Assembly: GCA_964506825.1 (NCBI GenBank)
Contig: CAZDND010000001.1
Span: 5,676-36,198 of the forward strand
Source: an uncultured Syntrophothermus sp.
GTDB taxonomy: Bacteria; Bacillota; Syntrophomonadia; Syntrophomonadales; DTU052
Length of the DNA: 30,523 bases
Direction of reading: 5' to 3'
The notes below the pieces were generated by a model, which ran no database searches, was not told the DNA's origin, and saw only the letters and a program-made list of their open reading frames with translations. Position numbers and translations under genes: made by a program. This document shows positions 5,434 to 26,552 of this stretch, one piece after another; position 1 is the stretch's first letter; the number at the start of each line of letters is the position of its first letter.

Positions 5434-6761
5434 CTACGGTATATAGTTCATCTTGCGAGCCTCGAAGCGTAACCAATCCCGAAAATCTGGATGAGCTATG
5501 TTTATGAGTTCCTCAACCCTTCTCCTCATGTGCTGACCCTTCAAGAAGGCCACCCCGTATTCGGTTACAATATATTGCACGTCAGTGCGTGGTACTGTGA
5601 CTGCAGAACCTGGGGCCAGGAAGGGAACAATCCTGGATTGCAATCGGCCCTGTTTATCGGTATAGGTTGAATAGAGCGTCAGGAAGGACTTGCCCTCCCT
5701 GGAATGTACGGCACCCTGGACAAAATCAAGCTGCCCACCGGTACCCGAGTACTGTTTGTGGCCTATGGATTCTGAATTGCACTGTCCGCCCAGATCCACT
5801 TCCAGAGTGCAATTTACAGAAATCATCTTGTTGTTGCGGGCTATTATATTGGGGTTATTAACATAACTGGCCGGCAGCATTTCTATCAGGGGATTGTTGT
5901 TAACAAATTCATACAGCCGCTGTGAACCAAGGATGAAAGTGGCGATCATTTTATTGGTGTGGAAATTTTTCTTGGTACAAGTAATCGCTCCGGATTCATA
6001 GAGGTCCAGCATGGAATCAACCATCATTTCCGTATGCACTCCCAAATCCTTCTTATCCTTCAGAAATGTGGCGACGGCATTGGGGACCTTGCCTATTCCC
6101 AGTTGCAGGCAAGAACCATTCTCTACCATATCGGCCACGTAGCTGCCGATGGTTCGGTCCCGTTCCTCGATCCTGTTTCCTGCTAGTGGTACCAGGGGTT
6201 GATGGTTTTCAATTACCGCACTCACTTCTGAGATGTGGTATTGTTTCCAAAAGTGCGCGGCATAAGATTATTTACCTCTAAAATAAGGTGGCGCCTGAAC
6301 GGGTGCTTTTTAGCCGCTTCCCAAGCATAATCGCAATTGGTACCGGTACTGAAAAAACCGTGTTCATCCATGGGAGCAACTTGGTGGATCATCACCGCCG
6401 GGTGGGGGGAGGCAACCACAGCCCGGGTGAATTCCGAGAGTCGCAGGGGACTAAAGGTAAATATGCCTCGCTGAGTGCCTTCCCTGGGATGCTGGCCCAA
6501 AAAATTTTGGTTGATGAGGATGCGGTCTGCCAGGTCAAAATTATAAATACCGCTGTCCCGAACCGTCAGTCCCCCAAAGAGATTCATGTCCCATAGTTCA
6601 CTCTTTTCAATACGGGATGCAAACGCCTCCATTAAAGTGGGTGGTATTCCATTGGCAAAGGGAATCATCACCGCATCGCCAGGATTGAGCAACGCCATGG
6701 CCTCATCGGGTGTGGACAATTTTTCAGTGTACATTTGCCGCCATCTATTTTGGATTTTCAA
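5434..6761 (-). pseudogene. Acetyl-CoA hydrolase/transferase family (butyryl- or 4-hydroxybutyryl-CoA:acetate CoA-transferase-like), split by a frameshift near 6238-6240
   Basis: N half: TTG 6761 after GGAGGT, WRQMYTEKLSTPDEA...APMDEHGFFSTG...EVNNLMPRTFG. C half: LQLGIGKVPNAV, DLGVHTEMMVD (catalytic Glu), GTGGQLDFVQGA, VTEYGVA. The joint reads GGA AAC AAT AC CAC ATC TCA GAA GTG, which restores the family-like ..HISEVSAVIE only after a frameshift. Confidence 0.85.
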
Positions 6762-6795
6762 TACACCTCCCGGGGACCCGCAATTGAGATTAGAA

Positions 6796-6842
6796 ACATT
6801 TAGTGGTTCAGAGGTCTGAGAAATGAACCACAACTAATATGT
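6796..6842. promoter_or_regulatory. Inverted repeat 35-80 nt upstream of the CoA-transferase start
   Basis: GTGGTTCA (6803-6810) and TGAACCAC (6824-6831), extendable imperfectly to ACATTTAG...CTAATATGT. Confidence 0.45.
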
Positions 6843-7171: not shown

Positions 7172-7612
7172 TTACAGGCTGATCGATTGGATGCGGTACT
7201 GCACCAAGCCCGCAGGAACTTCAACGGTCACCTCATCATTGATGGAACGCAGCAGAATAGACCGGCCAACTGGTGAGATGCAGGAGATCGATCCCCGCTG
7301 CCTGTTATCGACGCATGGACCGGTAATCTTGAGATTAACCGATTTATTGCGATTGAGATCCCAAAGACTGACCTCGCTGTTGACTACTACAAAGGGCAGC
7401 TGGTGGTCGTCGGTTTCCTCCCGATGGGCAGAGCTTAGAAGCGCTGAGATCTGATCAACGTAGGAACTCATATACTTTTCAAACTCCGATCGTTCGTTGG
7501 AGAGGCAGGGAAAAAGGCGATCCAGCACCTGGTCCTTTTCCTTTTTTACCGATTCCAAGTGTTCATTAAGACGTTTATAAGCCAGGTTCGACAATTGGAT
7601 GTTTCTCATCAT
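7172..7612 (-). CDS. GreA/GreB-family (Gre/Rnk/Gfh1-like) transcription factor paralog
   Basis: N-terminal coiled coil plus C-terminal Gre domain (VVVNSEVSL...ISCISPVGRSILLR...VTVEVPAGLVQYRI). ATG 7612 follows GAGGTG; the ORF track start is 7651. The canonical GDLSENAEY tip is absent. Confidence 0.8.
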   Translation of the reverse strand: MMRNIQLSNLAYKRLNEHLESVKKEKDQVLDRLFPCLSNERSEFEKYMSSYVDQISALLSSAHREETDDHQLPFVVVNSEVSLWDLNRNKSVNLKITGPCVDNRQRGSISCISPVGRSILLRSINDEVTVEVPAGLVQYRIQSISL

Positions 7613-7662
7613 AGCACCTCGAAGATAATTACATAAATTGACATATGTCACATAAAACTAGA

Positions 7663-7691
7663 GGGCGCTTCGCTTTGTCGGCGAAACACCC
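7663..7691 (-). promoter_or_regulatory. Leader hairpin (attenuator or pause-like) of the Gre-family gene
   Basis: GGGUGUUUCGC-CGACAAA-GCGAAGCGCCC forms 11 consecutive pairs including 2 G-U, followed by UCUAGUUUU. It lies just after the predicted transcription start. Confidence 0.6.
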
Positions 7692-7700
7692 ATTACCAAC

Positions 7701-7729
7701 AAGATATCATAACATACAATAGATGTCAA
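7701..7729 (-). promoter_or_regulatory. SigA-type promoter of the Gre-family gene
   Basis: Minus strand TTGACA (7729-7724), 17-nt spacer ending in TGA, then TATCTT (7706-7701), an extended -10. Confidence 0.7.
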
Positions 7730-7770
7730 ACCAGTATCTCATTACCATTTAATGCAAACAAGGAGATTTA

Positions 7771-7872
7771 ATGGAAGCTAAGGGCTTTTATCCTCGTGTG
7801 AGTATCCGCCGGTCATATATATCTCTGCAATTAAATTGCTGGCGAAGGACTATGTTCACTGGCCTCAGATAA
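7771..7872 (+). CDS. Possible small ORF, 33 aa (MEAKGFYPRVSIRRSYISLQLNCWRRTMFTGLR)
   Basis: AAGGAG (7760-7765) lies 5 nt before the ATG. No recognisable homology. Confidence 0.25.
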   Translation: MEAKGFYPRVSIRRSYISLQLNCWRRTMFTGLR

Positions 7873-7950
7873 AATTCACATGGCCTAAAGAAGGAATAAT
7901 GGTGCTGTCGAAGTAATTACAGAACATAGGTATTATCAATGTAATGAGAT

Positions 7951-9945
7951 ATGAGCAGGGAGAATTCTTCAATGATGGTATCCCAGGAAATCAGGAATCA
8001 AAAGTTTAAAAACGGGTTGTACGGTTATTCACAGGGAGAGGTCGAGGAGTTCTTGAACAGGTTAGCCGTGGAATTCGAAAATCTATATGCAGACAATGAG
8101 CGCCTTAAGGCTCGCATCCGGAATTTGCGGGCCCAAGCAGATGTTTCCCAGGGCATCGAAAATAAAGTGAATAATTTGCAGTCGGTGGCATTTCCGGTAG
8201 CCCAAAGAATCAGGGAAGAAGCGATGCAGGGGGCTCAGGAATTGTTTGACAACACGGAGCCTCATTTCGAACGGCTTCGCGATTCCTTCAAGGAAATTAT
8301 GCAGAGAGTAGAGTACCTGAACGAAGAGGCTCACACTCTTTTAAACCTTGATGGGCACCGGTGTTCCGAATCTCCTTCGAAACCTTCGGCATTGGGGGAA
8401 ACCAGGCTGACGGAAATGGCGGATGAGATAGCTCAGCTTCGTGATCAGGCCCAGCAGATCATAGATAGCATGGATCAATGGCAGCGTTCTTTATACGCTG
8501 AAAGTAGGTCGGGACCGAAAGAGAGCCTTACGATCGAAGGCCTGATGTCTGCCCAGTGGAACGCCCTGAAAGGGGAGGCGTACGAAAAGAACCATATGAG
8601 CAGGGTGCCGGCCGAGGAGCCATTTACTCCTGTAGCGGGGGACAGCCTCATACTGAAGGACGATAATGCTCTGGGCGCCGACCTCTGGGATGCAGATGCC
8701 AGTTTTATTGCCGACGGGATTTTACACATAGGAAGTGTTAAAGCCGAAGACGATTTCGTTGGAAGCCTTGCATCGACTGGCAAAGAGCTGATACAACTCG
8801 GAGGAACCCTGGCCTCGGGAGAAGAGACTGCAATAGGCCCAATTACAGCTGGTGGCGAAATGGTTAAGATAAGCAGTGATCCGGTCCTGAATGAGGGGGA
8901 GGAGGCCTGGATGGAAGGGGGCCCTTCATCCGGACAGTCAATCGAGATAAGCTCCGGGGATGATGACGGGCTTATGAGTCTTCGTAAAGCGGATAAAGAA
9001 GCTGATTATAATAATACCGGCATGGCTTTGGATATCCAGCCAGCCGACGGTGTTCCCGGGCAATCTGTTGATCCGGGGATGTTCTTGGAAGAAAAACCGA
9101 TGGGGCAGGATTTTCCCGTTGCCCAAAATGGTTCTGCTGAGGAGAAAATGTTGGACGGGAAGGATAGTGGGAAACAAAGGATTCTCACCCGTAGGGGGCT
9201 GTTCAGCCCAGTGCTTTTGCTGGTGGTGGTGCTGCTGGGACTCGCAGCCGGGGTGGCATGGAAAAACGACCTGATTGACCTTCCATCAATGCCGGGCTTG
9301 ACAGCGCCATCTGCGGCCATCGAAGATCCAGCCAAGCCCATAGACGAAACTCCGGTGTCTCCTCCGCCAGCCCGTGAGACTACTCCTTTGCTGGATGCGG
9401 TCAAAGCCGGCGATGCCGGAGAGGTCAAGGCGCTTCTGGTTGCCGGAGAATCATCCCGGGAACTCAACCGGCAAGGAGAGTCACCGCTGATGGTGGCTGC
9501 CTATAAAAACGATTTGGAGATCATGGAGTTGCTTCTGGATGGCGGTGCTGACCCGAATATAAGTGAACAGCAATGGGGAGGGACTCCCTTGATGTACGCT
9601 TCCTATATGGGACAATTATCCACGGTCGAAATGCTGAATGACAGCGGTGCCGACTTGGATATCATGAGCAAAGAAGGCTGGACAGCACTAATGTGCGCTG
9701 CCTATGCTGGCCGTCCCCAGACGGCGGGCTTTTTGGTGGTGCGAGGCGCCGACCCTTACGTAGAAAACCCTGACGGATTGAATGCTTATGATCTTGCATT
9801 GCTGGCGGGTAGGTCAATCACTGCCGCGTCCATGGTTCAAGCAGGAGTCGAACCCTCACCGCAGAATTCAGACTATCTTGCAGAGAATTCTCTGGAAGAT
9901 AATCTGCTGATAATGTTTTCCGATAAATTTGATGAATTGCGGTAG
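7951..9945 (+). CDS. DivIVA-domain / transmembrane / ankyrin-repeat fusion protein
   Basis: N-terminus EIRNQKFKNGLYGYSQGEVEEFLNRLAVEFENLYADNERLKARI (DivIVA pattern) and coiled coil; long acidic linker; RR followed by a hydrophobic helix (about aa 417-437); Pro-rich spacer; about 5 ankyrin repeats (TPLLDAV, SPLMVAA, TPLMYAS, TALMCAA, NAYDLAL with GADPN/GADLD turns). The start may be ATG 7972 after AGGGAG. Confidence 0.85.
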   Translation: MSRENSSMMVSQEIRNQKFKNGLYGYSQGEVEEFLNRLAVEFENLYADNERLKARIRNLRAQADVSQGIENKVNNLQSVAFPVAQRIREEAMQGAQELFDNTEPHFERLRDSFKEIMQRVEYLNEEAHTLLNLDGHRCSESPSKPSALGETRLTEMADEIAQLRDQAQQIIDSMDQWQRSLYAESRSGPKESLTIEGLMSAQWNALKGEAYEKNHMSRVPAEEPFTPVAGDSLILKDDNALGADLWDADASFIADGILHIGSVKAEDDFVGSLASTGKELIQLGGTLASGEETAIGPITAGGEMVKISSDPVLNEGEEAWMEGGPSSGQSIEISSGDDDGLMSLRKADKEADYNNTGMALDIQPADGVPGQSVDPGMFLEEKPMGQDFPVAQNGSAEEKMLDGKDSGKQRILTRRGLFSPVLLLVVVLLGLAAGVAWKNDLIDLPSMPGLTAPSAAIEDPAKPIDETPVSPPPARETTPLLDAVKAGDAGEVKALLVAGESSRELNRQGESPLMVAAYKNDLEIMELLLDGGADPNISEQQWGGTPLMYASYMGQLSTVEMLNDSGADLDIMSKEGWTALMCAAYAGRPQTAGFLVVRGADPYVENPDGLNAYDLALLAGRSITAASMVQAGVEPSPQNSDYLAENSLEDNLLIMFSDKFDELR

Positions 9946-9989
9946 GCGGGTCGATAATAGCTTAAACCCAACTGCTCATCGAGAAATGA

Positions 9990-10017
9990 TTGGCGAACAT
10001 TCATCGTGTAGTATAAA
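9990..10017 (+). promoter_or_regulatory. Possible SigA promoter for the prepilin peptidase
   Basis: TTGGCG, 16-nt spacer, TATAAA. Confidence 0.4.
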
Positions 10018-10090
10018 CTATACGGCAATGATTGATCAGGGTCAGGAAAGCCTTTAAAGTTCTGAAAGACGATTGAATCAGAGGTGGCAG

Positions 10091-10843
10091 ATGACCGTAA
10101 TCTCCTTGGTGGTATTTATCTTGGGGGCTTATGCAGGCAGTTTTCTCAATGTTGCTATCCAACGGGTGCCTGAGAGGATAACCCTGGTTCCTCCGCCGTC
10201 CACCTGCGATCAGTGTGGCTCACGCCTCCAAATGGCAGACAGGGTGCCCTTATTAAGCTTTTTGGTGCTGAGTGGTCGCTGCCGGTCATGTGAAGGACGA
10301 AGATCCTGGCAGTATCCCCTGGTGGAGTTGCTGACCGCCATACTTTTTGTATTGGTTTGGATGGCCTACGGGTTTTCCTGGGCTACTCTGGCAGGATGGA
10401 TATTTGCTACGGTTATGGTCGCCATAACCATCGTTGATATTAGACATATGATCATTCCAAATGAAGTCCTGGCCGCGGGCGCATGCTTGGGACTTCCTTT
10501 TCTAGCCATGGAATCACTCTCCAAAACAGCCTGGGGTTTGGTTGCCGGGCTCAGTTTGGGAGCAGCCATGCTGTTGATAGCTTGGCTATCCAAAGGCGGC
10601 ATGGGTGGAGGGGATATTAAACTGGCTGCCCTTATTGGACTGTTTCTAGGTCCTCGTTTGGCGGCTCTGGCAATATTCATGGCCTTCCTTGTTGGAGGAG
10701 TGGTGGGTGCATTTCTGTTGGTATCAAAGATAAAGGGACGCAAGGATGCCATACCTTTCGGACCTTACTTGGCATTAGGCGGATTGCTGGCTCTTTTACA
10801 GGGCACGAATATTATCAATTGGTATTTGGGTCTATGGGCTTGA
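10091..10843 (+). CDS. pilD: Type IV prepilin peptidase (A24, PilD/ComC)
   Basis: GSFLNVAIQRVP; two CxxC pairs (CDQC, CRSC); YPLVELLT; catalytic Asp motifs IVDIRHMIIP and GMGGGDIKL; IPFGPYL. ATG 10091 follows GAGGTG; the ORF track start is 10073. Confidence 0.95.
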   Translation: MTVISLVVFILGAYAGSFLNVAIQRVPERITLVPPPSTCDQCGSRLQMADRVPLLSFLVLSGRCRSCEGRRSWQYPLVELLTAILFVLVWMAYGFSWATLAGWIFATVMVAITIVDIRHMIIPNEVLAAGACLGLPFLAMESLSKTAWGLVAGLSLGAAMLLIAWLSKGGMGGGDIKLAALIGLFLGPRLAALAIFMAFLVGGVVGAFLLVSKIKGRKDAIPFGPYLALGGLLALLQGTNIINWYLGLWA

Positions 10844-11018
10844 GAAATCCAGGTTCCAGCCGTCCAAATGATCAGCTGTTTGCTGACATCCCCAATAGTG
10901 CGGCAATGGCTTTCATTTCCTTCGCAGCTCATCGAAACCTATTTCGTAGATTTTGTAAATACCAGGGTTTAATATCCGCTTTCTGGGGGGACCTGGTTTG
11001 ATTACTAGTTGATTTTCA

Positions 11019-11050
11019 GCTGGAAGCGCTTTTGAAAAAGGGCTTCCAGC
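11019..11050. other. Strong intergenic hairpin upstream of yqeG
   Basis: GCTGGAAGC-G-CTTTT-GA-AAAAG-G-GCTTCCAGC; no U-tract follows on either strand. Confidence 0.5.
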
Positions 11051-11096
11051 CATGGATTTGCATTAAAATGGTTGCTCGAATACGGAGGTTGTTATT

Positions 11097-11633
11097 GTGA
11101 AAAAATATCTGCTGCCTGACGTGTATGTGGACTCGATTTTGGATATTCCGCTGGCGAAATTGCACGCCCTGGGCATTAGGGCCTTTATCATGGATCTTGA
11201 TAATACGGTTACCAAATGGAACAGTATGGAGGTCAGCCCTGATGTTCTGGAATGGATTAAAGAAGCCAAAGACAAAGGCTTTCGAGTGTGCATCGTGTCC
11301 AACGGCACTCGTGAGCGAGTCCTGACGGTAGCTCAGGATCTCCGGATACCATTCGTGTCCAATGCGGGCAAACCTCGCAGAAAAGCGTTTTATCGGGCCT
11401 TGGAAGTATTGGAAAGCACTGCTCTGGAATCCGCCGTTATCGGGGACCAGATTTTTACTGATATTTTGGGGGGCAACCGGATGGACTTGCTTACCATCCT
11501 GGTAGTACCTATAGATAAAAGGGAATTTATAGGAACACGCCTAATGCGTCGTCTGGAATATTTTGTTTTGGGCCGAATCAACCAGGCGGTTAAAAGGGGT
11601 GACATCAACGCAATCTTCATGGAACACGAGTAG
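11097..11633 (+). CDS. yqeG: YqeG-type HAD subfamily IIIA phosphatase
   Basis: DLDNT (DxDxT), IVSN, AGKPRR and IGDQIFTDILGGNR motifs; RBS GGAGGT before GTG. Confidence 0.93.
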   Translation: MKKYLLPDVYVDSILDIPLAKLHALGIRAFIMDLDNTVTKWNSMEVSPDVLEWIKEAKDKGFRVCIVSNGTRERVLTVAQDLRIPFVSNAGKPRRKAFYRALEVLESTALESAVIGDQIFTDILGGNRMDLLTILVVPIDKREFIGTRLMRRLEYFVLGRINQAVKRGDINAIFMEHE

Positions 11634-11723
11634 GGCTGAACCAGCAAAGACATCTTGCATAATTAAAAACAAATATGTAACAATATGGATATTATCAATG
11701 ATTGCAATGAAAGGGTGGGGACT

Positions 11724-12581
11724 GTGCCCATCGACCAGCATACCAAAATCTTCGGACTGATAGGTTATCCGTTGGGACATTCGTTGTCGCCGCTTATGCA
11801 TAACAGGGCTTTTGAGGCTGCCAGTTTCAACGGAGCATACCTGGCTTTTACGGTGGCCCCGGAGGACGTATCTGAAGTAGTCCCGGCCGCCAAGGCTTTG
11901 GGTATCCATGGATTCAATGTGACTATACCGCACAAGGAATCAATAATGAAGTACTTGGACCGGATCGATCCCGAGGCTGAGATGTGCGGGTCGGTTAACA
12001 CGGTGATTATCGAGGGGGACCAGGCGATAGGGTACAACACGGATGGCAGCGGCTTTATCAGGTCCCTGCAAACCGAGGGATTGGAGCTGCCAGCCACGGC
12101 TGTAATTCTGGGCGCGGGAGGATCAGCGAGGGCTATAGGCTCATCCCTGGCCGCCCGGGGATGCGACGTGGTCTTTGTCAATCGCCATTCTGAACGAGCA
12201 CGCATATTGGCATCAGACCTGAAAAAATTTACCGATCAGGATATACTGGGAATGGATACTGGGCAAGCGATCACCGCCAAGGTTTTTCAAAGGGCGGGGA
12301 TGGTGGTCAACACGACGCCGGTAGGTATGTTCCCCCGGATTCAAGAAATGCCGGCTATTCCATTGGATGAGGTTCAGACTGGAGCAATCATCTGTGATAT
12401 CATATACAATCCCCTCAATTCGCGGTTGCTGACCGAGGCGGCCAGCCGGGGCTTTAAGACGGTCAATGGCTTGGGAATGTTTATAAATCAGGGGGCCTCC
12501 AGTTGGCAGTTGTTTACGGGGCAAGCGGCTCCCATTAAGGAAATGTATGAGGTGGTGCAAAAATATCTGGCCGCGCATTAA
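11724..12581 (+). CDS. aroE: Shikimate dehydrogenase
   Basis: Motifs GYPLGHSLSPLMHN, NVTIPHKE, SVNTV, GYNTDGSGF, ILGAGGSAR, DIIYNP and NGLGMFINQG. GTG 11724 chosen as start; the ORF track start is 11685. Confidence 0.95.
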   Translation: MPIDQHTKIFGLIGYPLGHSLSPLMHNRAFEAASFNGAYLAFTVAPEDVSEVVPAAKALGIHGFNVTIPHKESIMKYLDRIDPEAEMCGSVNTVIIEGDQAIGYNTDGSGFIRSLQTEGLELPATAVILGAGGSARAIGSSLAARGCDVVFVNRHSERARILASDLKKFTDQDILGMDTGQAITAKVFQRAGMVVNTTPVGMFPRIQEMPAIPLDEVQTGAIICDIIYNPLNSRLLTEAASRGFKTVNGLGMFINQGASSWQLFTGQAAPIKEMYEVVQKYLAAH

Positions 12582-13071
12582 TGGGGAAGCTTCTGGCTAT
12601 ACCCTGGTGGAATTAATCTCGGTAATGGCCATTCTGGGGATTTTGTTCGCAATGGCCTGGCCTGCTTATCGGGATATGGCTGATAAAATGGCTTTGGAGC
12701 AGGATGCGGTCGTTATGGTGAGAGAAATCAGGCTGGCACGTCAGAGCGCGATAACAGCTGGAAGGGAATGCCTGATCATATTTGTGGCCAGTTCCAGCTC
12801 TGTGCCTTCAATATCCTACGAGGTACGCCAGAATCAGATAACCAGGACGGTGAGGCTCAGCCAGGGAGTGCGCCTGGTCGGAACCACCTTTGGCCCCGAT
12901 CCTAAATATCCTTCCATAGCGGGTCGAACTGCCTGCCGGATTTTTCCGTCGGGCATCCCAGCTCAAGGGGGGACCGTCCATCTGATTAACAACCAGGATA
13001 AGTCGTATTATGTGGCTGTTACACCCGTCACCGCCCGGGTAAGAGCTACGGAGACCGATCCCAGTAATTGA
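12547..13071 (+). CDS. Minor type IV pilin (FimU/FimT/ComGD-like)
   Basis: Class III signal SG|YTLVELISVMAILGILFAMAWP with E5; L..EIRLARQSAI helix; IFPSGIP..GGTVHL...SYYVAVTPVTARVR tail. Overlaps the aroE stop. Confidence 0.85.
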   Translation: MRWCKNIWPRINGEASGYTLVELISVMAILGILFAMAWPAYRDMADKMALEQDAVVMVREIRLARQSAITAGRECLIIFVASSSSVPSISYEVRQNQITRTVRLSQGVRLVGTTFGPDPKYPSIAGRTACRIFPSGIPAQGGTVHLINNQDKSYYVAVTPVTARVRATETDPSN

Positions 13072-13180
13072 GGTTTCCAATGGAGGACCACCTGGGAAAG
13101 CTGGATTTGACAGTTAAGGTTTTGGCTTCTGGAATAGGGGCGATGAGGATGACCATGGGGGCAGGATTTGGTTAGGCGCA

Positions 13181-13189
13181 TGATAGAAT
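13181..13189 (+). promoter_or_regulatory. Extended -10 element upstream of aroC
   Basis: TG-A-TAGAAT about 48 nt before the aroC ATG; no good -35. Confidence 0.35.
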
Positions 13190-13236
13190 ATAGTAATTCG
13201 AGAGTTTCATATTTAAAGAAGTAATGGGGTGGACAA

Positions 13237-14418
13237 ATGCTGCGTTTACTCACAGCGGGCGAATCTCATGGCCCGGCACTGACGGCGATTATTGAGGGCT
13301 TGCCGGCGGGTATCCCGGTAAAGAAAGATGATATCGACCTGCAACTGCAACGGAGACAGATGGGATATGGACGCGGCGGACGCATGTCTATCGAAAAGGA
13401 TCAGGTGCGGATACTGTCCGGAATCCGAGATGGGAAGACCTTGGGGAGTCCCGTCACTCTGATGATGGAAAATCGGGATCACCAAAATTGGCACCAAATA
13501 ATGAATGCGGAAGCGATCACATCCGGCAAGGAAGTCAAGCGTCCCCGGCCCGGACATGCGGATCTCGCCGGAGCCATGAAGTACCATCATCAGGATTTCC
13601 GTAATGTGCTGGAGAGATCCTCAGCCCGGGAAACCACTGCCAGGGTGGCGGCGGGAGCAGTCTTCAGGCGGCTGCTGGATTTGTTCGACATCCGCATATA
13701 TAGTCAGGTGGTAGGTATCGGAGAGGCGGTCAGCTCTCTCCGGGGACAGCCTATAACCTCTGAAACCCAGAAGAGGACTGAAGAATCTCCCGTCAGATGT
13801 GCTGATCCGGTGGCTGCTGATGAGATGATTGCCTGTATAGACCGGGCCAAAGAATCTGGCGAGTCACTGGGCGGTTGCTTTGAAGTCCGGGTCACCAACG
13901 TGCCTCCGGGATTGGGCAGCTATGTCCAGTTAGACCGGCGATTGGACAGCCTGCTGAGTGCAGCCATCATGAGCATACCCGCCATCAAGGGGGTTGAAAT
14001 CGGGGAAGGGTTTGAGAGCAGCCGGCAAAAAGGCTCTATGGTCCATGATCCGATCCGATTTGATGACGAAAGGGGACTGTTCCGGCAGCAGAACAACGCC
14101 GGCGGGATAGAAGGCGGAATGAGCAATGGCGAAGAAATTTGGCTGCGGGCTTACATGAAGCCCATTCCTACTCTTTACCAGCCTCTGGTCAGTGTGAATA
14201 TAGACGACTGGAAGGAAGCAGCTGCCGATATAGAGCGCTCGGATGTATGTGCCGTTCCTGCAGCATCAGTGGTAGGTGAGGCTATGGTAAGCATGGTTAT
14301 CGCCGGGGAGCTATTGAACAAGCTGGGCGGAGACTCGGTGGATGAGATGATGAGCAATTACGAGAATTACATGGGATATTTGGAAAAGGTGTGGAAATGG
14401 ACCAGAAGAAGAACATAG
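13237..14418 (+). CDS. aroC: Chorismate synthase
   Basis: Motifs LTAGESHG, GYGRGGRM, RPRPGHADL, ERSSARETTARVAAGA, SIPAIKGVEIG, NNAGGIEGGMSNG and ERSDVCAVPAA. Confidence 0.97.
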   Translation: MLRLLTAGESHGPALTAIIEGLPAGIPVKKDDIDLQLQRRQMGYGRGGRMSIEKDQVRILSGIRDGKTLGSPVTLMMENRDHQNWHQIMNAEAITSGKEVKRPRPGHADLAGAMKYHHQDFRNVLERSSARETTARVAAGAVFRRLLDLFDIRIYSQVVGIGEAVSSLRGQPITSETQKRTEESPVRCADPVAADEMIACIDRAKESGESLGGCFEVRVTNVPPGLGSYVQLDRRLDSLLSAAIMSIPAIKGVEIGEGFESSRQKGSMVHDPIRFDDERGLFRQQNNAGGIEGGMSNGEEIWLRAYMKPIPTLYQPLVSVNIDDWKEAAADIERSDVCAVPAASVVGEAMVSMVIAGELLNKLGGDSVDEMMSNYENYMGYLEKVWKWTRRRT

Positions 14419-14915
14419 TGCTGATAGGTTTTATGGGAACCGGGAAGACCGCTGTAGGAATAAGGCTGGCCTCCAGGCTGGGACGCGAATTTGTCGATAC
14501 GGATAAAGAAATAGAAAAGGTTGTCGGCATGCCGGTACGGGAGATTTTCCAGAAGTATGGGCAGACCAGATTTCGCTCGGAGGAGTCACTGGTCATAAAG
14601 CAGGTTTCTGCCCGGACCGGTATGGTGATTGCTACTGGGGGCGGGGCAGTGATCAATCCCGATAATGTCAGCAATCTAAAGGCCAACGGTGTCTTGGTCT
14701 GCCTGCAGGCTGACCCGCAGATTATCCTGGAACGGGTCAACCGTAAGCGCCGTACCCGACCCCTATTGAGGAAGGGTACCACGGTCGAAGATATTAGTGA
14801 GATGCTGGAGCAGCGGCGCGAGTATTATGAGCAGGCGGACATCCTGATTGATACAGCCGGGATGGAGCCGGAAGCAGTAGTCGGAAAAATTATTGAGAGC
14901 CTGAAGGAAAGGTAG
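14391..14915 (+). CDS. aroK: Shikimate kinase
   Basis: NIVLIGFMGTGKT Walker A; DTDKEIE, FRSEE, VIATGGG and RPLL motifs. Confidence 0.95.
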   Translation: MEMDQKKNIVLIGFMGTGKTAVGIRLASRLGREFVDTDKEIEKVVGMPVREIFQKYGQTRFRSEESLVIKQVSARTGMVIATGGGAVINPDNVSNLKANGVLVCLQADPQIILERVNRKRRTRPLLRKGTTVEDISEMLEQRREYYEQADILIDTAGMEPEAVVGKIIESLKER

Positions 14916-14918
14916 AAA

Positions 14919-15962
14919 TTGGCCATGGAAAGATTTCGAGTTGAATTGGGGCCCAGATCTTATGACATAGTTATCGGCAACGGAGTCCTTGGCGACCTCA
15001 GACTTCTGATTGAGGAAGCCGTGGGTGAGAGGAAAAAGGTCCTGCTGGTTACCAACCCCACCGTATTTGGGCTTTATGGATCCCAGGTAGTGAATACTCT
15101 GGGAATGGGAGATGGCAATCTGGTCCTGGGGATGGTACCGGACGGCGAGGAATACAAGACTATGGAACAGGCTCAAAGATTGATAGATCTGTTGATAGAT
15201 CATCAATTTGATCGCTATAGTCTAATATTGGCTTTGGGTGGCGGGGTGATCGGTGATCTGGCCGGATTTGTTGCGGCAATATACCAGCGGGGTATAGACT
15301 ACATCCAGATTCCCACGACTTTACTGGCCCAGGTGGACAGCAGTGTGGGCGGGAAGACGGCGGTCAATCACCCCCAAGGCAAGAACATGATCGGGGCTTT
15401 CCATCAGCCTCGGCTGGTGGCCATCGATCCATTGGTTTTAAAAACCCTTGAGGACCGGGACTATCTATCCGGTCTGGCGGAAATGGTCAAATATGGGATT
15501 ATCGCCGACCGGCATTATTTCGCCTTTCTTGAACATAACGCGGCTGCCATCAATGCCAGGAATTACGAGGTGCTCAAGCCGGCCATATTGTGGGCATGCC
15601 GGATCAAAGCCGCTATTGTTGAACAGGACGAACGAGAAGGAGGGCTGAGGGCTCTTCTCAATCTGGGACATACCTTTGGACATGCAATCGAGGCTCATTT
15701 TGGTTTTGGTTATTACCGCCATGGAGAAGCGGTGGCCATAGGCATTGCCATGGCTGCGCGTCTGGCCAATGACCTGAAAATCCTGGATGATAAGGCCCTG
15801 ACCTCTATTCTCCATCTCCTGCAAATACTGCACCTCGATTATCCTGAACCATATATACCCTCCGATGAGTTTGTAAATCTAATGCAGATGGATAAAAAGG
15901 TAAAAAATGGCCAGGTAAGGCTGGTACTGCCGGTGGCAGTAGGCCGTGCCATCATCAAATAG
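14919..15962 (+). CDS. aroB: 3-dehydroquinate synthase
   Basis: Motifs DGEEYKT, ALGGGVIGDLAGF, PTTLLAQVDSSVGGKTAVN, GKNMIGAFHQP, LLNLGHTFGHAIE, HGEAVAIG and MDKK. Confidence 0.97.
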   Translation: MAMERFRVELGPRSYDIVIGNGVLGDLRLLIEEAVGERKKVLLVTNPTVFGLYGSQVVNTLGMGDGNLVLGMVPDGEEYKTMEQAQRLIDLLIDHQFDRYSLILALGGGVIGDLAGFVAAIYQRGIDYIQIPTTLLAQVDSSVGGKTAVNHPQGKNMIGAFHQPRLVAIDPLVLKTLEDRDYLSGLAEMVKYGIIADRHYFAFLEHNAAAINARNYEVLKPAILWACRIKAAIVEQDEREGGLRALLNLGHTFGHAIEAHFGFGYYRHGEAVAIGIAMAARLANDLKILDDKALTSILHLLQILHLDYPEPYIPSDEFVNLMQMDKKVKNGQVRLVLPVAVGRAIIK

Positions 15963-16009
15963 GACCAGGGCTTTGCCAGGAAAACTATTATGAACAATTG
16001 TTGTTTTGG

Positions 16010-16069
16010 CAAAATATGGTTGCATATTACATAAATGTAAGTTAATATCATAATATAACAAAATATGGT
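16010..16069 (+). promoter_or_regulatory. AT-rich regulatory region upstream of pilB
   Basis: Direct repeat CAAAATATGGT at 16010-16020 and 16059-16069, flanking the palindrome TTACAT-AA-ATGTAA (16027-16040). Confidence 0.5.
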
Positions 16070-16092
16070 ATTAATTACATAGAAGGTATCAG

Positions 16093-17727
16093 ATGCAAAA
16101 GCAACCATTGTCTGGGCGTCATGAAGTTGCCAGATTATCCAGAAAGCCAAATACTGAACGAAAAAAGGTGCTTAGTCGGCCGGCCCTGCGAATGCCCGGC
16201 AGAAAACAGTCGCCTTTTGAAACCATTTCTCCCCAAGGCATCCCAGCACTGGCTGCCGATAAGGAATTACTTCAGTTAGTCACCCTTTCTATGGCTCGAA
16301 AGTACCGAGTGTGGCCGATCAGCCGGAAAGGGGATCATCTGCTGGTCGGTATGGCTGATCCAGCAGACTTCAATACCCTTGACGAGCTGCAAATGATAAC
16401 GCGAATGAGGATTTCCGGGCTCAAAGTGCAATCCGAAGTACTAGATCGAATTCTGGATGAAGCCAGTATATCCGTCAATAGTCCCTGGATTGAAGGTGCC
16501 GCCGAGGGGCTCGACAGTATTACCCAGGATATTAAAGTGACCAAGGAAGAAGAACCCCTGGAATCACACAGGGATCCGGTAGTCCGCCTGGTTAATTCGC
16601 TGCTGCAACAGGCGGTCCTATGCGGAGCCAGCGACATTCATCTGGAACCCGAAGAAAAGTCAATGCGGATCAGATTCCGCATTGACGGTGAGCTCACCGA
16701 ACTTGCCCCCCTTCCATCAACTTCAACATCAGCAATCCTGTCGCGAATCAAAATACTAGCTGGTTTGGACATCACTGAAAAAAGGCGCCCCCAAGACGGT
16801 CTGATCAGGCAATCATTTGATAACCGGGAAGTGGGCTTTCGAGTGGCCACGCTGCCCGCAATTACCGGAGAAAAGATCGTCCTGAGAGTCCTTGACCAGC
16901 AGAAAAGCCTTCTGGACCTGGATGGACTTGAACTGGGAAAAACCAGCCATGCGCTCTTCTCCAGTCTGTTGCGGCATCGGGAAGGCCTTATCCTGATTAC
17001 GGGCCCAACCGGGGCCGGCAAGACCAGTACCTTGTACGCCATGTTAAACCAGCTCAATTGCAAGGAAAGAAATATAATCACCCTGGAAGACCCGGTGGAA
17101 TTCGTTTTGCCGGGTCTTACTCAGGTGGCGATCAATCATCGCTCCGGCATCGGATTTGCCGAGGGTTTGCGCCGAGTTTTGCGAGTAGATCCCGACATCA
17201 TCATGGTGGGTGAGATCCGGGATACTGAGACAGCACATCTTGCGGTGCAGGCTTCCGTAAGCGGACATTTGGTACTGGCTACCCTGCATACAGTATCAGC
17301 ATCGGGAGCGGTGACGCGATTATTGGATATGGGGGTAGAGCCATATCTCTTGGGAGCCTCACTCATCGGGGTAGTTTGCCAGCGGTTGGTGAGGGTTCTT
17401 TGTGCTGCATGTCGTGAGAACTACTTGCTGCCGGAAAGGGACGCAATTCACATGGGAATACCGCCGGAATACACCAGATCTTTCTGGCGCAGCCGAGGAT
17501 GCCACCGATGCGGGTACATTGGATATCGCGGAAGACAGATGATCTCTGAGATCCTGGTGGTCGATCAGGAAATCAAGAGTCTCCTGTCCCGGGGGGCTTT
17601 GGAGAGTGAAATTGACCAAGCAGCCAGGAAGAAGGGATTCATTTCTCTATTGGAAGATGGGTTGTTTAAGGTATCGCTGGGGATTACATCTCTGGAAGAA
17701 ATCTTGGGAGCCTTGAGTTATGACTAA
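16093..17727 (+). CDS. pilB: Type IV pilus / T2SS assembly ATPase (PilB/GspE/ComGA family)
   Basis: ASDIHLEP; Walker A GPTGAGKT; TLEDPVE; Walker B DPDIIMVGEIRD; His box GHLVLATLH; CxxC pairs (CAAC, CHRC); N-terminal GSPII_E-like region ending VGMADP. Confidence 0.93.
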   Translation: MQKQPLSGRHEVARLSRKPNTERKKVLSRPALRMPGRKQSPFETISPQGIPALAADKELLQLVTLSMARKYRVWPISRKGDHLLVGMADPADFNTLDELQMITRMRISGLKVQSEVLDRILDEASISVNSPWIEGAAEGLDSITQDIKVTKEEEPLESHRDPVVRLVNSLLQQAVLCGASDIHLEPEEKSMRIRFRIDGELTELAPLPSTSTSAILSRIKILAGLDITEKRRPQDGLIRQSFDNREVGFRVATLPAITGEKIVLRVLDQQKSLLDLDGLELGKTSHALFSSLLRHREGLILITGPTGAGKTSTLYAMLNQLNCKERNIITLEDPVEFVLPGLTQVAINHRSGIGFAEGLRRVLRVDPDIIMVGEIRDTETAHLAVQASVSGHLVLATLHTVSASGAVTRLLDMGVEPYLLGASLIGVVCQRLVRVLCAACRENYLLPERDAIHMGIPPEYTRSFWRSRGCHRCGYIGYRGRQMISEILVVDQEIKSLLSRGALESEIDQAARKKGFISLLEDGLFKVSLGITSLEEILGALSYD

Positions 17728-18919
17728 GAAATACACATATCTCATAATCGATCATGCTCATAACCGCAGGTATGGACGAACCAGAGCTCCCGAATTGGAC
17801 TCTGCGGTAAGACACCTCATTTCTAAGGGCTATTGGGTTTTAGAGGTCAAGGAACAGCGATGGGCAAGACTCCTCAACCGATCAACTTCAAATATCATTG
17901 GTATGGCCGGGGAGAGGGAAGCTATATGGTTTTTCCGACAGATGGAACTCCTGGTGGGGGCTGGATTGCCATTGCTGAGATGTCTGGAAGTCATAAAAAG
18001 CATGGCAAAACCCAAGATGCAGCTGGTCACCGCAAGGATTATCAAGAACTTGGAGCGGGGACAGGCTCTCGCCGAATCCATCGGATCACAAAAGGGAGTA
18101 TTTTCATCGCTGGCGGTGCAAATGATTCGCGGCGGAGAAATGAGTGGAGAACTCGAGTCAGTCTTGTGCCAGCTGGTAGCGTACCTGGAAAAACAGGAGA
18201 AGATAAAAAAGCAGATACGCGGAGCATGCCTTTATCCGGGGATGTTGGCATTATTCTGTTTGGCGGTAACTATATTTCTCATAAGGTATGTCATTCCGCG
18301 AGTGACCAATTTAATGGGCAGCGGGGTATCCCTGCCGCCTCCAATCCTTTGGATACAGGGAATCGGACTGGCCGACATAATTGTCATGGTCATCATAGGT
18401 TTTGCAGCAGTCGTAGTTTGGAAGTCAGGGCTTCGAAATGCCAGTGGACGATTGCTCATGGATCGTCTGATCCTGCAGATACCTCTGGCGGGTCCGGTCG
18501 TCAAGCGAGGTATCGTATCGAGAATGGTCGGCAGTATAGCAATGCTCCAGAAATCCGGGCTGACTATCATCGAGTCCCTGAAAACCGTTGAATCAATGAC
18601 CGAAAACCTGTCAGCCGCCAAGGTGGTTAGTGGGCTTCGCGCCGACATAAATCATGGGATGAGTCTGGGATTGGCGATGCAAAAAAGCGGTTTTTTTGAA
18701 CATACCATAATTCAGATGGTAACCATCGGGGAGGAATCCGGCCGTCTCGATGCAGCTCTCATGAAGGTTTCCAAATACTATGAGGAAGGGGTGGAAGCAA
18801 CCATTAAACGATGGACGACCATGATTGAACCCATACTGATCATTGTAATGGCGGCAATTGTCGGGTTCATCATAGTCGGCACGCTGGTACCAATGTTGGA
18901 CTCCATGGCGGTTTTTTGA
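17720..18919 (+). CDS. pilC: Type IV pilus platform protein (PilC/GspF/ComGB family)
   Basis: Two T2SSF repeats (FFRQMELLVGAGLPL; MIRGGEMSGEL; MVTIGEESGRL) and three TM helices ending IEPILII...LVPM. Confidence 0.93.
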   Translation: MTKKYTYLIIDHAHNRRYGRTRAPELDSAVRHLISKGYWVLEVKEQRWARLLNRSTSNIIGMAGEREAIWFFRQMELLVGAGLPLLRCLEVIKSMAKPKMQLVTARIIKNLERGQALAESIGSQKGVFSSLAVQMIRGGEMSGELESVLCQLVAYLEKQEKIKKQIRGACLYPGMLALFCLAVTIFLIRYVIPRVTNLMGSGVSLPPPILWIQGIGLADIIVMVIIGFAAVVVWKSGLRNASGRLLMDRLILQIPLAGPVVKRGIVSRMVGSIAMLQKSGLTIIESLKTVESMTENLSAAKVVSGLRADINHGMSLGLAMQKSGFFEHTIIQMVTIGEESGRLDAALMKVSKYYEEGVEATIKRWTTMIEPILIIVMAAIVGFIIVGTLVPMLDSMAVF

Positions 18920-18931
18920 TTTGAGAGGAGG

Positions 18932-19294
18932 TTGTGGGAGATGGTTAAAAAATTATGGAGAAAAAGGGTTAAAGACGATCAAGGGTTTACAATTCTGGAG
19001 CTGCTGGCAGTGTTTGCTATTTTGGCGATAATTATTGCCATTGCGGTACCTCGTTACTCAGCTATCGTTGCTGCCAGTAAGACTGAGGCCTGCGCGGCCA
19101 ATATAGAGATGATTTCCAAGGCCGCAGCCATGTACTATGAAATCGAGGACACCAGGCCTGACATCGCTGGACTGGTTGCGGCAGGTTACATCGAAGAACA
19201 GGTAAATTGTCCTTTCTCAGATTTGGCTGCACCCGTTGGATACAGCATCGATGCCACCTCCGGAACGGTAACCTGTCTCAATGTACATCCATAA
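18932..19294 (+). CDS. Probable major type IV pilin (short, 102 aa mature; ComGC/PilA-like)
   Basis: Basic leader ...KDDQG|FTILELLAVFAILAIIIAIAVPRY with F1, E5 and P22; strong RBS GAGGAGG; first pilin after pilC. Confidence 0.9.
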   Translation: MWEMVKKLWRKRVKDDQGFTILELLAVFAILAIIIAIAVPRYSAIVAASKTEACAANIEMISKAAAMYYEIEDTRPDIAGLVAAGYIEEQVNCPFSDLAAPVGYSIDATSGTVTCLNVHP

Positions 19295-19673
19295 TCAATC
19301 CGGCAGTCTTCTGATGGAGGTAATGGCTGCAACCGTGCTGTTGACTCTTTGCGTAGGATCGCTATTCACCATATGCGGCAATTCACTGGTCTGGAATCGT
19401 CAAGCGGCTGACCGAACATCTTCCTTGCTGCTGGCAGCTGACGCTATCGAGCAGTTGAAGTGCCATTCCGAATTGGTGAAGCCAGTGGATGACCTGTCTG
19501 CGGCTGACCTGGGACTTTCGATTGGCCCAAGGGATGAATATTCAATTCGGGTGTCGATTCGGGAATATGATCCCAGCCTGGGGTTATACATTGTAAATGT
19601 AAACAGCTCTTGGAACCGGGGCGGTCGGCTTCGGCAACAGAGCCTGACTGGACTTATCCCAGGAAAATCATAG
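19281..19673 (+). CDS. Minor pilin (PilV/ComGE-like)
   Basis: NQSG|SLLMEVMAATVLL class III signal with E5; A..LAADAIEQLK helix; C-terminal IVNVNSSW strand. Confidence 0.75.
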   Translation: MYIHNQSGSLLMEVMAATVLLTLCVGSLFTICGNSLVWNRQAADRTSSLLLAADAIEQLKCHSELVKPVDDLSAADLGLSIGPRDEYSIRVSIREYDPSLGLYIVNVNSSWNRGGRLRQQSLTGLIPGKS

Positions 19674-19701
19674 CGGTTGAGGCCACCCGGGAGAACAGAT
19701 T

Positions 19702-20181
19702 ATGAAAACTGTTGAACTTATGGACAACGTCCATAGATGTGTGTTCACGCAGAAGGGCAATACTTTGGTAGAACTCCTGGCTTATCTGGCCATCACCGGC
19801 ATGCTGATGGCGGCGTTGGGCGGTGTTATGATTAACGGTTGGCGGGCTTATGAAAGCATCGACAATTATGCTGAACTGCAGGAAAACGCCAGGGCAGGTA
19901 TGGGAATGATTGCACGTGATGTGCAGCTTTGCGGAAACGTCCTCTCGGCACAGAACGGAGTGATCGATATGACTGGCAGTGATGGCTACAACCTCAAGTA
20001 CCGTACGGCGGACAGGACTCTGTACCGGGTTGCCAAAGGAACGGCTAATCCAGTGTGTATTAATGTTGAGCGGTTTGAGGTCGCTGAAGGACCGCCCGAT
20101 ACAGTTAGGATCCTTCTGGAGACACAAAACCAGGGAAGAAGCTATTTACTGCAAACCCGGGTTGCGCGGGTGGGAGATTGA
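19702..20181 (+). CDS. Minor pilin (PilW/PulJ/ComGF-like)
   Basis: TQKG|NTLVELLAYLAITGML with E5; LQENARAGMGMIARDV helix. Confidence 0.8.
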   Translation: MKTVELMDNVHRCVFTQKGNTLVELLAYLAITGMLMAALGGVMINGWRAYESIDNYAELQENARAGMGMIARDVQLCGNVLSAQNGVIDMTGSDGYNLKYRTADRTLYRVAKGTANPVCINVERFEVAEGPPDTVRILLETQNQGRSYLLQTRVARVGD

Positions 20182-20200
20182 CCGAAGGCCGTGACTTGAT

Positions 20201-21298
20201 ATGCGGCATCTGATGGTGGTGAAGGGAGGAACGGGGGCTATCGAACGTGGATCGGTGCTGTTGACGGCATTGTTTACAATTCTGGTCCTGATGCTGATAG
20301 CGATGGCTGCCGCAAGCATAGGACATTTGGAAGCAACTATCGCAAGCCGGTATGCACGGTCGGTTCAGGCCGATTACCTCCTTCAGGCAGCCATTGAAAG
20401 AGTCCGGTTGATCATAGGAAACAATCCCGCCGTTTTGGACGATCCGACCCATCAATATGGATTGGTAGTAAATGAACCAGAGCTTAACGGGCGGGTGGAT
20501 GTGACGGTCACGCGGCCTACAGCCGATGGGCTCATCCTGGTGGAAGGCACAGTGATCCTGGCGGATGGGTCCAGAAAAAGCCTTCAGGCCGCGATGACGG
20601 CTCCTCCCGATTTCGAAGTCTACTGCGAAAGGATCCAGGCGGAAACCAATATCGATCTAGAGGGAATTCTTTATGAATTTGGGCTGGGGATACCCCTTGG
20701 TTTAACCCAGGGGGGCGGTGGGATAGTCTTTGAAGAATTGGTAAAGGCGGCCTGCCAGGAATATATCGGGGATGAAACATTACTGGGAGCAGCATCTATA
20801 ACCCGTCGCTATCAACCGCCGTCGGTAGACATCGATTTCTGGCGTAAGGCTGCCCTGGATCAGGAACTCTTTTGGGACGGCTATGCTTACACTTATTTCG
20901 ACACCAGCACCATTCTGGCAACACCCCTGGAAGACGTCATCTATGCCGTCGATGGCGATGTATTGATATATTCGGATGATACCAGTTTGGTCATGACTGA
21001 CAGCCTGATAATTGCCTCCGGGAACGTATCAATAATCAATGCCGGAACGGAGCCAACCAACATTGCCGGATTGATATTGGCTGGGGGGGATATCAACCTG
21101 TTCCAGGCTGCAAACACCATGCAGGTGGGGGCAAGTCTATGTGCCGGAGCGGACCTGAATATGTGCACCGGGGACGTCACCAGTCAGATTAATATGAGGC
21201 ACTGGGGCTTGAGTGGCTTCCTGGAACAATTGCCACCTTCTATTGACAGCAGGGCGGGATTTCTATCCATAACGGCGCTAAAAGAAATCTACAAATAG
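20201..21298 (+). CDS. PilX/GspK-like large minor pilin with C-terminal repeat domain
   Basis: ERG|SVLLTALFTILVLMLIAMAA lacks E5, as is typical of PilX/GspK; QADYLLQAAIE helix; last of the pilin genes. Exact start uncertain. Confidence 0.75.
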   Translation: MRHLMVVKGGTGAIERGSVLLTALFTILVLMLIAMAAASIGHLEATIASRYARSVQADYLLQAAIERVRLIIGNNPAVLDDPTHQYGLVVNEPELNGRVDVTVTRPTADGLILVEGTVILADGSRKSLQAAMTAPPDFEVYCERIQAETNIDLEGILYEFGLGIPLGLTQGGGGIVFEELVKAACQEYIGDETLLGAASITRRYQPPSVDIDFWRKAALDQELFWDGYAYTYFDTSTILATPLEDVIYAVDGDVLIYSDDTSLVMTDSLIIASGNVSIINAGTEPTNIAGLILAGGDINLFQAANTMQVGASLCAGADLNMCTGDVTSQINMRHWGLSGFLEQLPPSIDSRAGFLSITALKEIYK

Positions 21299-21310
21299 GA
21301 GAGATTCGAA

Positions 21311-22941: not shown

Positions 22942-22948
22942 GGGGTGC

Positions 22949-23521: not shown

Positions 23522-23566
23522 AGACTCTGGTACGTCCAGTATATATTGGCCGAAACCGACAGCCTG

Positions 23567-23599
23567 TAATGGATTGACTACATTATGGTATGCTATTAT
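23567..23599 (+). promoter_or_regulatory. Possible promoter/operator for tldD
   Basis: Extended -10 TG-C-TATTAT (23591-23599). TTGACT at 23574 is only 14 nt away, which is suboptimal. Inverted repeat TAATG-N9-CATTA (23567-23585). Confidence 0.3.
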
Positions 23600-23678
23600 T
23601 TGAGAGGTTTGGTTGTGACTGCCCATTCATATCGGGCATCCGACTATCTTATCCGAACCCAAATAGGAGGAATACGCC

Positions 23679-26532: not shown

Positions 26533-26552
26533 GCGCTTGCGGGGGTGGACTG

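Follow-up and report, generated by a model that had tools for sequence, protein, structure and literature searches.

To our knowledge, the characterised DivIVA and GpsB proteins are all soluble hubs that rely on separate membrane adaptors. The membrane-binding loop residues of Bacillus subtilis DivIVA are F17 and R18. GpsB (PDB 4UG3 and 6GPZ) is an adaptor for the cytoplasmic tails of penicillin-binding proteins, and in Corynebacterium the DivIVA N-terminal domain of Wag31 binds GlpR, a membrane receptor bearing an acidic disordered region (10.1101/2023.02.01.526586). DivIVA hubs have reportedly also been studied at a pilus-bearing pole in Bdellovibrio (PMC11025332). MapZ/LocZ of Streptococcus and RodZ combine a cytoplasmic organiser, a disordered linker, a single transmembrane (TM) helix with the N-terminus inside and the C-terminus outside (N-in/C-out), and an extracellular binding domain. 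In diderms, the single-pass proteins FimV, HubP, and TspA carry long acidic linkers and are implicated in the placement of polar type IV pili. Ankyrin repeats are known outside the cytoplasm as well, and one such protein, Bd3460 of Bdellovibrio, holds a DD-endopeptidase in check (PMC4686830). Here, we analysed a stretch of 30,523 nucleotides (nt), referred to as the window, from the genome of an uncultured Syntrophothermus sp. (assembly GCA_964506825.1, contig CAZDND010000001.1, positions 5,676 to 36,198 of the forward strand). It contains a gene, termed DivAnk, whose product joins a DivIVA-type head, an acidic linker, a TM helix, and an ankyrin repeat module in one polypeptide, and which lies directly upstream of the prepilin peptidase gene pilD. 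This design is undescribed and is confined to six uncultured species; full-text literature searches retrieved no report of pilus-linked proteins that combine DivIVA with ankyrin repeats or with a TM helix, and the remark in a preliminary description of this DNA that its author knew of no characterised DivIVA-TM-ankyrin protein agrees with this outcome.

The open reading frame (ORF) at positions 7951–9945 (+ strand) was uninterrupted over 664 codons, and the residue numbers given below are counted from 7951, the start of this longest ORF, and not from the methionine M8. A Shine–Dalgarno motif read from the sequence (AGGGAG, 7957–7962, +) lies 9 nt upstream of the ATG at 7972, and all DivAnk orthologs start with MIVPQEIRN in register with M8 in the alignments. 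As the placement of the Shine–Dalgarno motif and the ortholog N-termini agree, the start codon is most likely ATG 7972 (M8), giving a gene at 7972–9945 (+) and a product of 657 amino acids (aa); the database protein P0002 (657 aa) also begins at M8. The open frame reported in the preliminary description was therefore retained, while its start was moved from 7951 to 7972.

The domain order proposed there from the letters alone (DivIVA, acidic linker, TM helix, and ankyrin repeats) was reproduced, with every element found at its place using Pfam, AlphaFold2, and Kyte–Doolittle hydropathy. We consider this architecture and the N-in/C-out topology, with the DivIVA head inside and the ankyrin module outside, to be highly probable. 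As in DivIVA of B. subtilis (PDB 2WUJ/2WUK) and Wag31, the N-terminal domain passed the Pfam and TIGR03544 thresholds, was predicted to consist of a short helix that leads through a loop into a long coiled-coil helix, and kept the hydrophobic residue of the loop. Unlike these proteins, DivAnk is 657 aa long rather than approximately 165 aa, and it has a covalent TM anchor, an acidic disordered tether of 150–280 aa, and an extracytoplasmic ankyrin domain; the equivalent of R18 is not conserved, and DivAnk coexists with a canonical DivIVA in one genome. The characterised DivIVA and GpsB proteins are soluble peripheral proteins with no TM segment, whereas a strong TM helix was found in DivAnk and in all of its orthologs. 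DivAnk also differs from the Wag31–GlpR pair, which consists of two proteins, has a partner with three TM segments and no ankyrin repeats, and acts in the hand-over from the divisome to the elongasome.

The DivIVA domain and the first coiled coil occupy 7981–8328 (+; residues 11–126). Pfam PF05103 matched this region with 57.3 bits against a cut-off of 28 and covered profile positions 3–122 of 131, and TIGR03544 (DivIVA domain) scored 28.7 bits against a cut-off of 22. The DivIVA-like character of the N-terminus, which had been noticed earlier from the letters, thus extended to both hidden Markov models (HMMs). In the genome-wide profile search, the PF05103 score of DivAnk was 62.4 bits, and its orthologs scored 53–83 bits. 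The GpsB equivalog model (NCBIfam PRK14127) gave 31.3 bits against a cut-off of 91, with the match confined to residues 9–75; DivAnk was below the cut-off of each of the equivalog models GpsB, Wag31, and MAG0865, and no GpsB C-terminal trimerisation domain was detected in it. The HMM matches place DivAnk in the DivIVA domain family but not among the GpsB equivalogs.

A search of PDB sequences with the N-terminal domain placed GpsB N-domains at the top (E = 1.4e-4, residues 10–62), followed by DivIVA (E = 0.03). By this likeness, DivAnk could be an adaptor that couples a DivIVA-type head to bitopic membrane proteins; unlike in GpsB, however, a single chain holds both the head and the bitopic membrane protein. 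AlphaFold2 modelled the N-terminal part as a monomer with a predicted local distance difference test (pLDDT) score of 86.8 and the succession of short helix (residues 5–15), loop (16–20), and long helix (21–132). The full-length model, made from a four-row alignment, had a long helix at residues 28–140 and a second helix at residues 147–186 (8389–8508, +), which is conserved in the orthologs and, judging from the model, probably extends the coiled coil. As the monomer model of the N-terminal domain is a long single helix, the fold search with it was uninformative: Foldseek returned no PDB match, and VIA-align returned generic coiled coils with Z of approximately 7.

The loop of the DivIVA domain reads LYGY in DivAnk (8017–8028, +; residues 23–26) and LRGY, FSGY, FNGY, LNGY, or MNGY in the orthologs, such that the hydrophobic position is kept (L/L/F/F/L/M) and the basic position varies (Y/R/S/N/N/N). 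The preliminary description had taken the missing arginine to fit a replacement by the TM anchor. This was rejected as a family trait, as the basic residue varies among the orthologs and LRGY is kept in the nearest one; the loss of the loop arginine in favour of the anchor appears from the alignments to be at best a tendency. LRGY is also the loop of the canonical 170-aa DivIVA (115 bits) encoded in the same genome. Since this canonical protein is present, DivAnk is an additional, specialised paralog.

The head is followed by an acidic disordered linker of 221 aa (8509–9171, +; residues 187–407) containing 42 D+E and 14 K+R, and AlphaFold2 gave pLDDT values below 50 over residues 181–423. The length of the linker ranges from 149 to 276 aa among the orthologs. 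A short motif at its start, TIEGLMSA (8530–8553, +; residues 194–201), corresponds to T[IV][EQ]xLM[SA] in the alignments and is clear in five of the six orthologs. The linker ends at the polybasic stretch KQRILTRR (9172–9195, +; residues 408–415), which is directly preceded by EIPWE in the orthologs of genus g3 and lies on the cytoplasmic side of the single TM helix (9199–9270, +; residues 417–440). The helix was identified from the Kyte–Doolittle profile (19-residue window), in which the lone peak of 2.67 falls on residues 417–435 and no other exceeds 1.3, and from AlphaFold2, which placed a helix at residues 418–440. The 15-residue flanks of the helix hold five K/R on the N-terminal side against one on the C-terminal side. 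The same single hydrophobic peak and charge asymmetry were found in four full-length orthologs, and five or six K/R precede the helix within 15 residues in all orthologs. The earlier placement of the C-terminus outside by the positive-inside rule, made from KQRILTRR, is therefore shared by every ortholog. Beyond the membrane, a Pro/Ala-rich juxtamembrane spacer (9271–9384, +; residues 441–478; pLDDT < 50), predicted to be extracytoplasmic and modelled as disordered over residues 441–475, varies in sequence and length among the orthologs. The search for Omp85 in the 92%-complete genome of the window gave no match, and hence a single-membrane (monoderm) envelope with an extracellular ankyrin module is plausible.

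In this layout DivAnk resembles MapZ/LocZ and RodZ in logic. It has no sequence relationship with them (no Pfam match), and its inner part is of the DivIVA type and its outer part consists of ankyrin repeats. It shares with FimV, HubP, and TspA the single membrane pass and the long acidic linker, but its orientation is reversed. FimV holds a wall-binding LysM domain outside and its acidic region and TPR inside, whereas in DivAnk the acidic region precedes the TM helix and the outer part is the folded domain. With no LysM or FimV Pfam match and no homology, DivAnk does not belong to the FimV/HubP family.

The ankyrin module comprises five repeats (9385–9840, +; residues 479–630), in agreement with the earlier count of about five. 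Pfam Ank and Ank_2 scored 78 and 76.5 bits, respectively, and the matches to Ank, Ank_2, and Ank_5 on residues 480–620 lay between 65 and 78 bits. AlphaFold2 modelled the repeats with a pLDDT of approximately 90, and Foldseek aligned them to designed ankyrin repeat proteins (DARPins) with E of approximately 1e-11, TM(target) of approximately 0.9, and a root-mean-square deviation of 1.1–1.5 Å. The HMM matches and the modelled fold both place the module in the ankyrin repeat family. In a mapping of our own, the repeats were set against the ankyrin consensus, of which positions 2, 3, 5, 13, 14, and 33 are those that we take from DARPin design to be target-binding. At these positions, 24% of the residues of repeats 2–5 (9466–9840) are aromatic, compared with 6% in the whole domain. 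The tryptophan at position 5 of repeat 4 (W577) does not vary among the orthologs, W543 is conserved in five of the six, a tryptophan at position 3 of repeat 3 occurs in five of the six, and Y or F at position 13 recurs in repeats 2–4. Acidic residues are kept at position 5 of repeat 2 (E), position 3 of repeat 4 (E), and position 3 of repeat 5 (D). This conserved aromatic and acidic stripe along the binding positions points to one conserved ligand, and thus suggests that the ankyrin face may bind a single partner. The protein ends in a tail with a hydrophobic motif ([LM]L..[LM]F; 9904–9942, +), which was recognised in the alignment and lies in a low-confidence part of the structure model.

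Generic exported ankyrin proteins, which are common in diderms, align to DivAnk residues 403–643 with 30–40% identity. Bd3460 (PMC4686830) and the diderm signal-peptide ankyrin proteins encoded at loci L013, L017, L035, and L076 share with DivAnk the position of the repeats outside the cytoplasm. They are, however, soluble, lipoprotein, or signal-anchored ankyrin-only proteins, and none has a cytoplasmic DivIVA domain.

DivAnk is a real, intact, and conserved gene. The opposite view, that it is an artefact or has no function (through chimeric assembly, gene decay, or the misreading of two genes as one fusion), draws on two orthologs that look split: the G003 copy, with a frameshift in the coiled coil, and the G006 copy, with two overlapping ORFs. 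The latter was rejected as a natural split, as it coincides with a scaffold gap (a run of X) and an independent contig of the same organism (L097, 99.8% identical) has an intact 573-aa ORF. Intact single ORFs were found in four other species. Contigs from four independent metagenome runs (four studies of bioreactor, digester, and soil) span 7600–11000 and differ by substitutions only, with zero indels. For the closest ortholog pair (the G006 organism and G007), the ratio of nonsynonymous to synonymous substitution rates (dN/dS) was 0.32 for the DivIVA and coiled-coil part, 0.27 for the ankyrin part, and 0.67 for the linker; for the neighbouring pilD, HAD phosphatase, aroE, and pilin genes, it was 0.14–0.30 in the same genome pair. 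The values of approximately 0.3 at both folded ends indicate purifying selection on both, joined by a fast-evolving tether. The artefact view is already largely refuted by these data and is extremely unlikely.

In the G003 copy (L011, 4001–8013), the frameshift yields ORFs of 117 and 405 aa; it may be either local decay or a long-read assembly error. This locus also contains an insertion sequence (IS)-like 512-aa ORF on the opposite strand between the DivAnk ortholog and pilD, and a 561-aa ORF between the ortholog and greA.

Within a single family, six of 11 species genomes contain a full-length ortholog (both genomes of genus g1, three of the six of g3, and the only one of g5), and three of these orthologs were 41%, 32%, and 26% identical to DivAnk. 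The carriers are uncultured Syntrophomonadaceae/Syntrophomonadales metagenome-assembled genomes (MAGs) and Syntrophothermus sp. DTU052, from bioreactors and digesters. No full-length ortholog was present in the other 114 genomes of the same class, and scanning 185,579 species genomes with a pattern gave no further full-length match. A scan of JGI/ENA metagenome contigs returned only source contigs of three already-known organisms and no new members. When the profile of alignment A1 was compared with 1.84 billion representatives, giant multi-ankyrin proteins dominated the matches listed, among which those aligning in one stretch over the full length were DivAnk itself, P0058 (534 aa), and P0071 (572 aa). 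Word-index protein searches recovered DivAnk and ankyrin-only proteins alone and missed the known orthologs, so they are weak evidence of absence. The feature search of the ESM Atlas gave generic ankyrin clusters only (scores < 0.9), and a phylum-wide DivIVA survey gave only canonical frames of 150–330 aa among the matches listed.

Two observations were made during this survey. The contig JBLMZI010000004.1 (L014), which carries the G005 ortholog, was deposited as 'Solirubrobacterales bacterium MAG207' (Actinomycetota), but its genome was placed in the family of the window; the Actinomycetota label is probably wrong, and the locus has a Firmicutes-type row of DivAnk, pilD, two pilin genes, and pilB. 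In G008, a DivIVA-like fragment (C133, 14659–14832; L093, approximately 2660–2833) is 40% identical to residues 8–67 and sits in a 94-codon frame after a U32 peptidase gene, and the same query found no other DivIVA match there. Possible explanations are a gene remnant, a small gene of the GpsB-like kind, and a fragment left by the assembly.

The pilD gene (prepilin peptidase/N-methyltransferase; 10091–10843, +; Pfam A24_N_bact and Peptidase_A24) is co-oriented with DivAnk and directly follows it, as had been read from the letters. It was the sole A24 peptidase gene found in the window's genome and in G006. In the window, DivAnk is followed by pilD, a HAD phosphatase gene, aroE, a GspH-like pilin gene, aroC, aroK, aroB, pilB, pilC, pilin genes, and pilMNO. 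In G001, G006, and G007, the common order is greA (−), DivAnk, pilD, HAD phosphatase, aroE, pilin, and aroC. pilD is immediately downstream of DivAnk in G000, G001, G005, G006, and G007, and it is separated from DivAnk by the IS-like ORF in G003. In G005, whose ortholog is the most distant (26% identity), the row is DivAnk, pilD, pilin, pilin, and pilB, with neither greA nor aro genes, which indicates that the DivAnk–pilD adjacency outlasts the change of everything else around it. The linkage to pilus genes, whose absence in homologs had been named beforehand as grounds for abandoning the proposal, was thus found at all six loci upstream of pilD. This amounts to a conserved genomic association with core pilus genes, with pilD downstream in six carriers and in two contexts within one family.

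In the genomes of the family that lack DivAnk, pilD occurs in the orders pilB-pilT-pilC-pilin-pilD or pilC-pilin-pilD-pilM, or behind an unrelated membrane ORF. In other families of the order, pilD lies within the pilus cluster with no DivAnk-type gene, for example in aroC-aroK-aroB-pilB-pilC-pilA-pilD...pilM. No gene analogous to DivAnk was found 5' of pilD in the genomes that lack DivAnk, where the neighbours are pilT, a pilin gene, or an unrelated membrane ORF of 236 aa. As pilD is located inside pilus clusters elsewhere, its pairing with DivAnk accompanies a relocated pilD.

The spacer between DivAnk and pilD (9946–10090, +) has no terminator-like hairpin and overlaps a weak promoter-like match at 9929–9958. 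In all four loci scanned (the window and three orthologous loci), the coding strand from DivAnk to pilD was free of terminator-like hairpins, and co-transcription of DivAnk and pilD is possible on this sequence evidence. Co-folding of full-length DivAnk with PilD gave a score of 0.00 and no verdict, and it was used neither for nor against binding.

The interleaving of aro and pilus genes in the window (10091–26999) is partly ancestral in the order, as G035 (L179) has aroC-aroK-aroB-pilB-pilC-pilA-pilD, and only the DivAnk-carrying genera g1 and g3 have pilD leading the row, ahead of the HAD phosphatase gene and aroE. After pilMNO, the window continues with tldD/pmbA, aroQ, an M24 peptidase gene, and efp. 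Upstream of DivAnk, it contains ruvX, vanW, mltG (YceG), and a U32 peptidase gene on the + strand, followed by two ORFs and greA on the − strand. At 5434–6833 on the − strand are a 263-aa ORF with only the C-terminal domain of acetyl-CoA hydrolase/transferase and, upstream of it with a 4-nt overlap, a 203-aa ORF with no Pfam match. Judging from the sequence, the pair looks like a CoA-transferase gene in two pieces, by frameshift or as a genuine two-gene form.

We propose that DivAnk is a lineage-specific bitopic scaffold of the DivIVA family, whose DivIVA-like spatial scaffolding serves PilD or the type IV pilus, and we assign this reading a probability of roughly 0.4. By analogy with DivIVA and GpsB, the head would dimerise and oligomerise, and it would collect where the membrane is negatively curved (at poles and septa) or attach to the cytoplasmic tails of partners. 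Owing to the covalent tether that crosses the membrane, clustering of the head inside would concentrate the ankyrin modules at the corresponding spot outside the cell, where their conserved Trp/Tyr-rich groove would capture an extracytoplasmic partner. The process organised in this manner would most likely be the maturation of pilins or the assembly of pili at a defined place, because DivAnk stays directly 5' of pilD, the sole prepilin peptidase gene here, and because this pilD heads the type IV pilus/aro gene row. A bolder version, in which DivAnk acts as a "transmembrane DivIVA", is unlikely: an intracellular geometric cue would become an external mark on a monoderm cell, formed by a patch of DARPin-like receptors, and their aromatic groove would hold mature pilins or the ectodomains of the pilus platform, thereby fixing the site of pilus emergence and of contact with a syntrophic partner.

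Several findings weigh against a role of DivAnk in the pilus. The link to the pilus is one of gene order only, within one family, and all six loci may derive from one ancestral arrangement rather than being independent observations. The gaps between DivAnk and pilD, at 70–320 bp, leave room for separate promoters, and the weak promoter-like match at 9929–9958 lies in this region of the window. No copy of DivAnk was seen in five of the 11 genomes of the family, and two of these (98% and 89% complete) still carry pilus genes; pili therefore do not need DivAnk. The G003 copy, being frameshifted and adjoined by the IS-like ORF, indicates that DivAnk can apparently be lost. Moreover, the basic loop residue, which takes part in membrane binding in B. 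subtilis DivIVA, is missing from five of the six orthologs.

Part of these findings would suit a GpsB-like or MapZ-like adaptor of division or of the cell wall with no pilus role, the adjacency to pilD being an inherited accident. The head would then sit at septa or poles or on the tails of wall-synthesis proteins, and the target of the ankyrin module would be a wall enzyme, which it would bind or hold back, or a wall polymer. The restriction of the six loci to one family, by which the synteny may be a single inherited event, speaks for this explanation, as do the rank of the GpsB N-domains above DivIVA among the solved-structure sequence matches (E = 1.4e-4 against 0.03), the VanW, YceG/MltG, and U32 genes upstream, and the aromatic-rich groove, which would suit the binding of glycans or peptide stems too. 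Periplasmic ankyrin inhibitors of wall hydrolases are, in addition, known (PMC4686830). The GpsB equivalog score, however, is only 31 bits against its cut-off of 91, and the upstream wall genes are separated from DivAnk by two minus-strand ORFs and the divergent greA. These wall genes are missing from the G005 context, in which the adjacency to pilD is retained, and no wall enzyme is among the conserved neighbours. We regard a wall adaptor of this kind as somewhat unlikely.

An outside-in sensor or adhesion receptor was also considered, in which a ligand displayed by a partner cell (e.g., a methanogen) or by a surface would be recognised by the ankyrin module, and the resulting clustering would recruit cytoplasmic factors through DivIVA-type assembly. 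The carriers are Syntrophomonadaceae-type MAGs of bioreactors and digesters, organisms of obligate partnership, the ankyrin binding face is conserved, and the long flexible tether fits clustering-based signalling. A spacer of approximately 40 aa and an ankyrin module of approximately 5 nm are, however, unlikely to span a Gram-positive wall or surface layer (S-layer) to another cell, and DivAnk has no signalling output domain. This receptor role is very unlikely.

With six species in one family, the DivAnk family is tiny, and it is therefore not a general form of the monoderm polar landmark that the preliminary description had envisaged; the curvature sensing, positioning of pili, and partner-cell contacts suggested there are putative roles. 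The placement of type IV pilus assembly in Gram-positive bacteria is largely unknown. With a DivIVA head naturally fused to a membrane anchor and to a binding module outside the cell, DivAnk would offer a compact and testable case of position marking across the membrane. DivAnk occurs in syntrophic fatty-acid oxidisers, in which cell-to-cell contact matters to anaerobic digestion.

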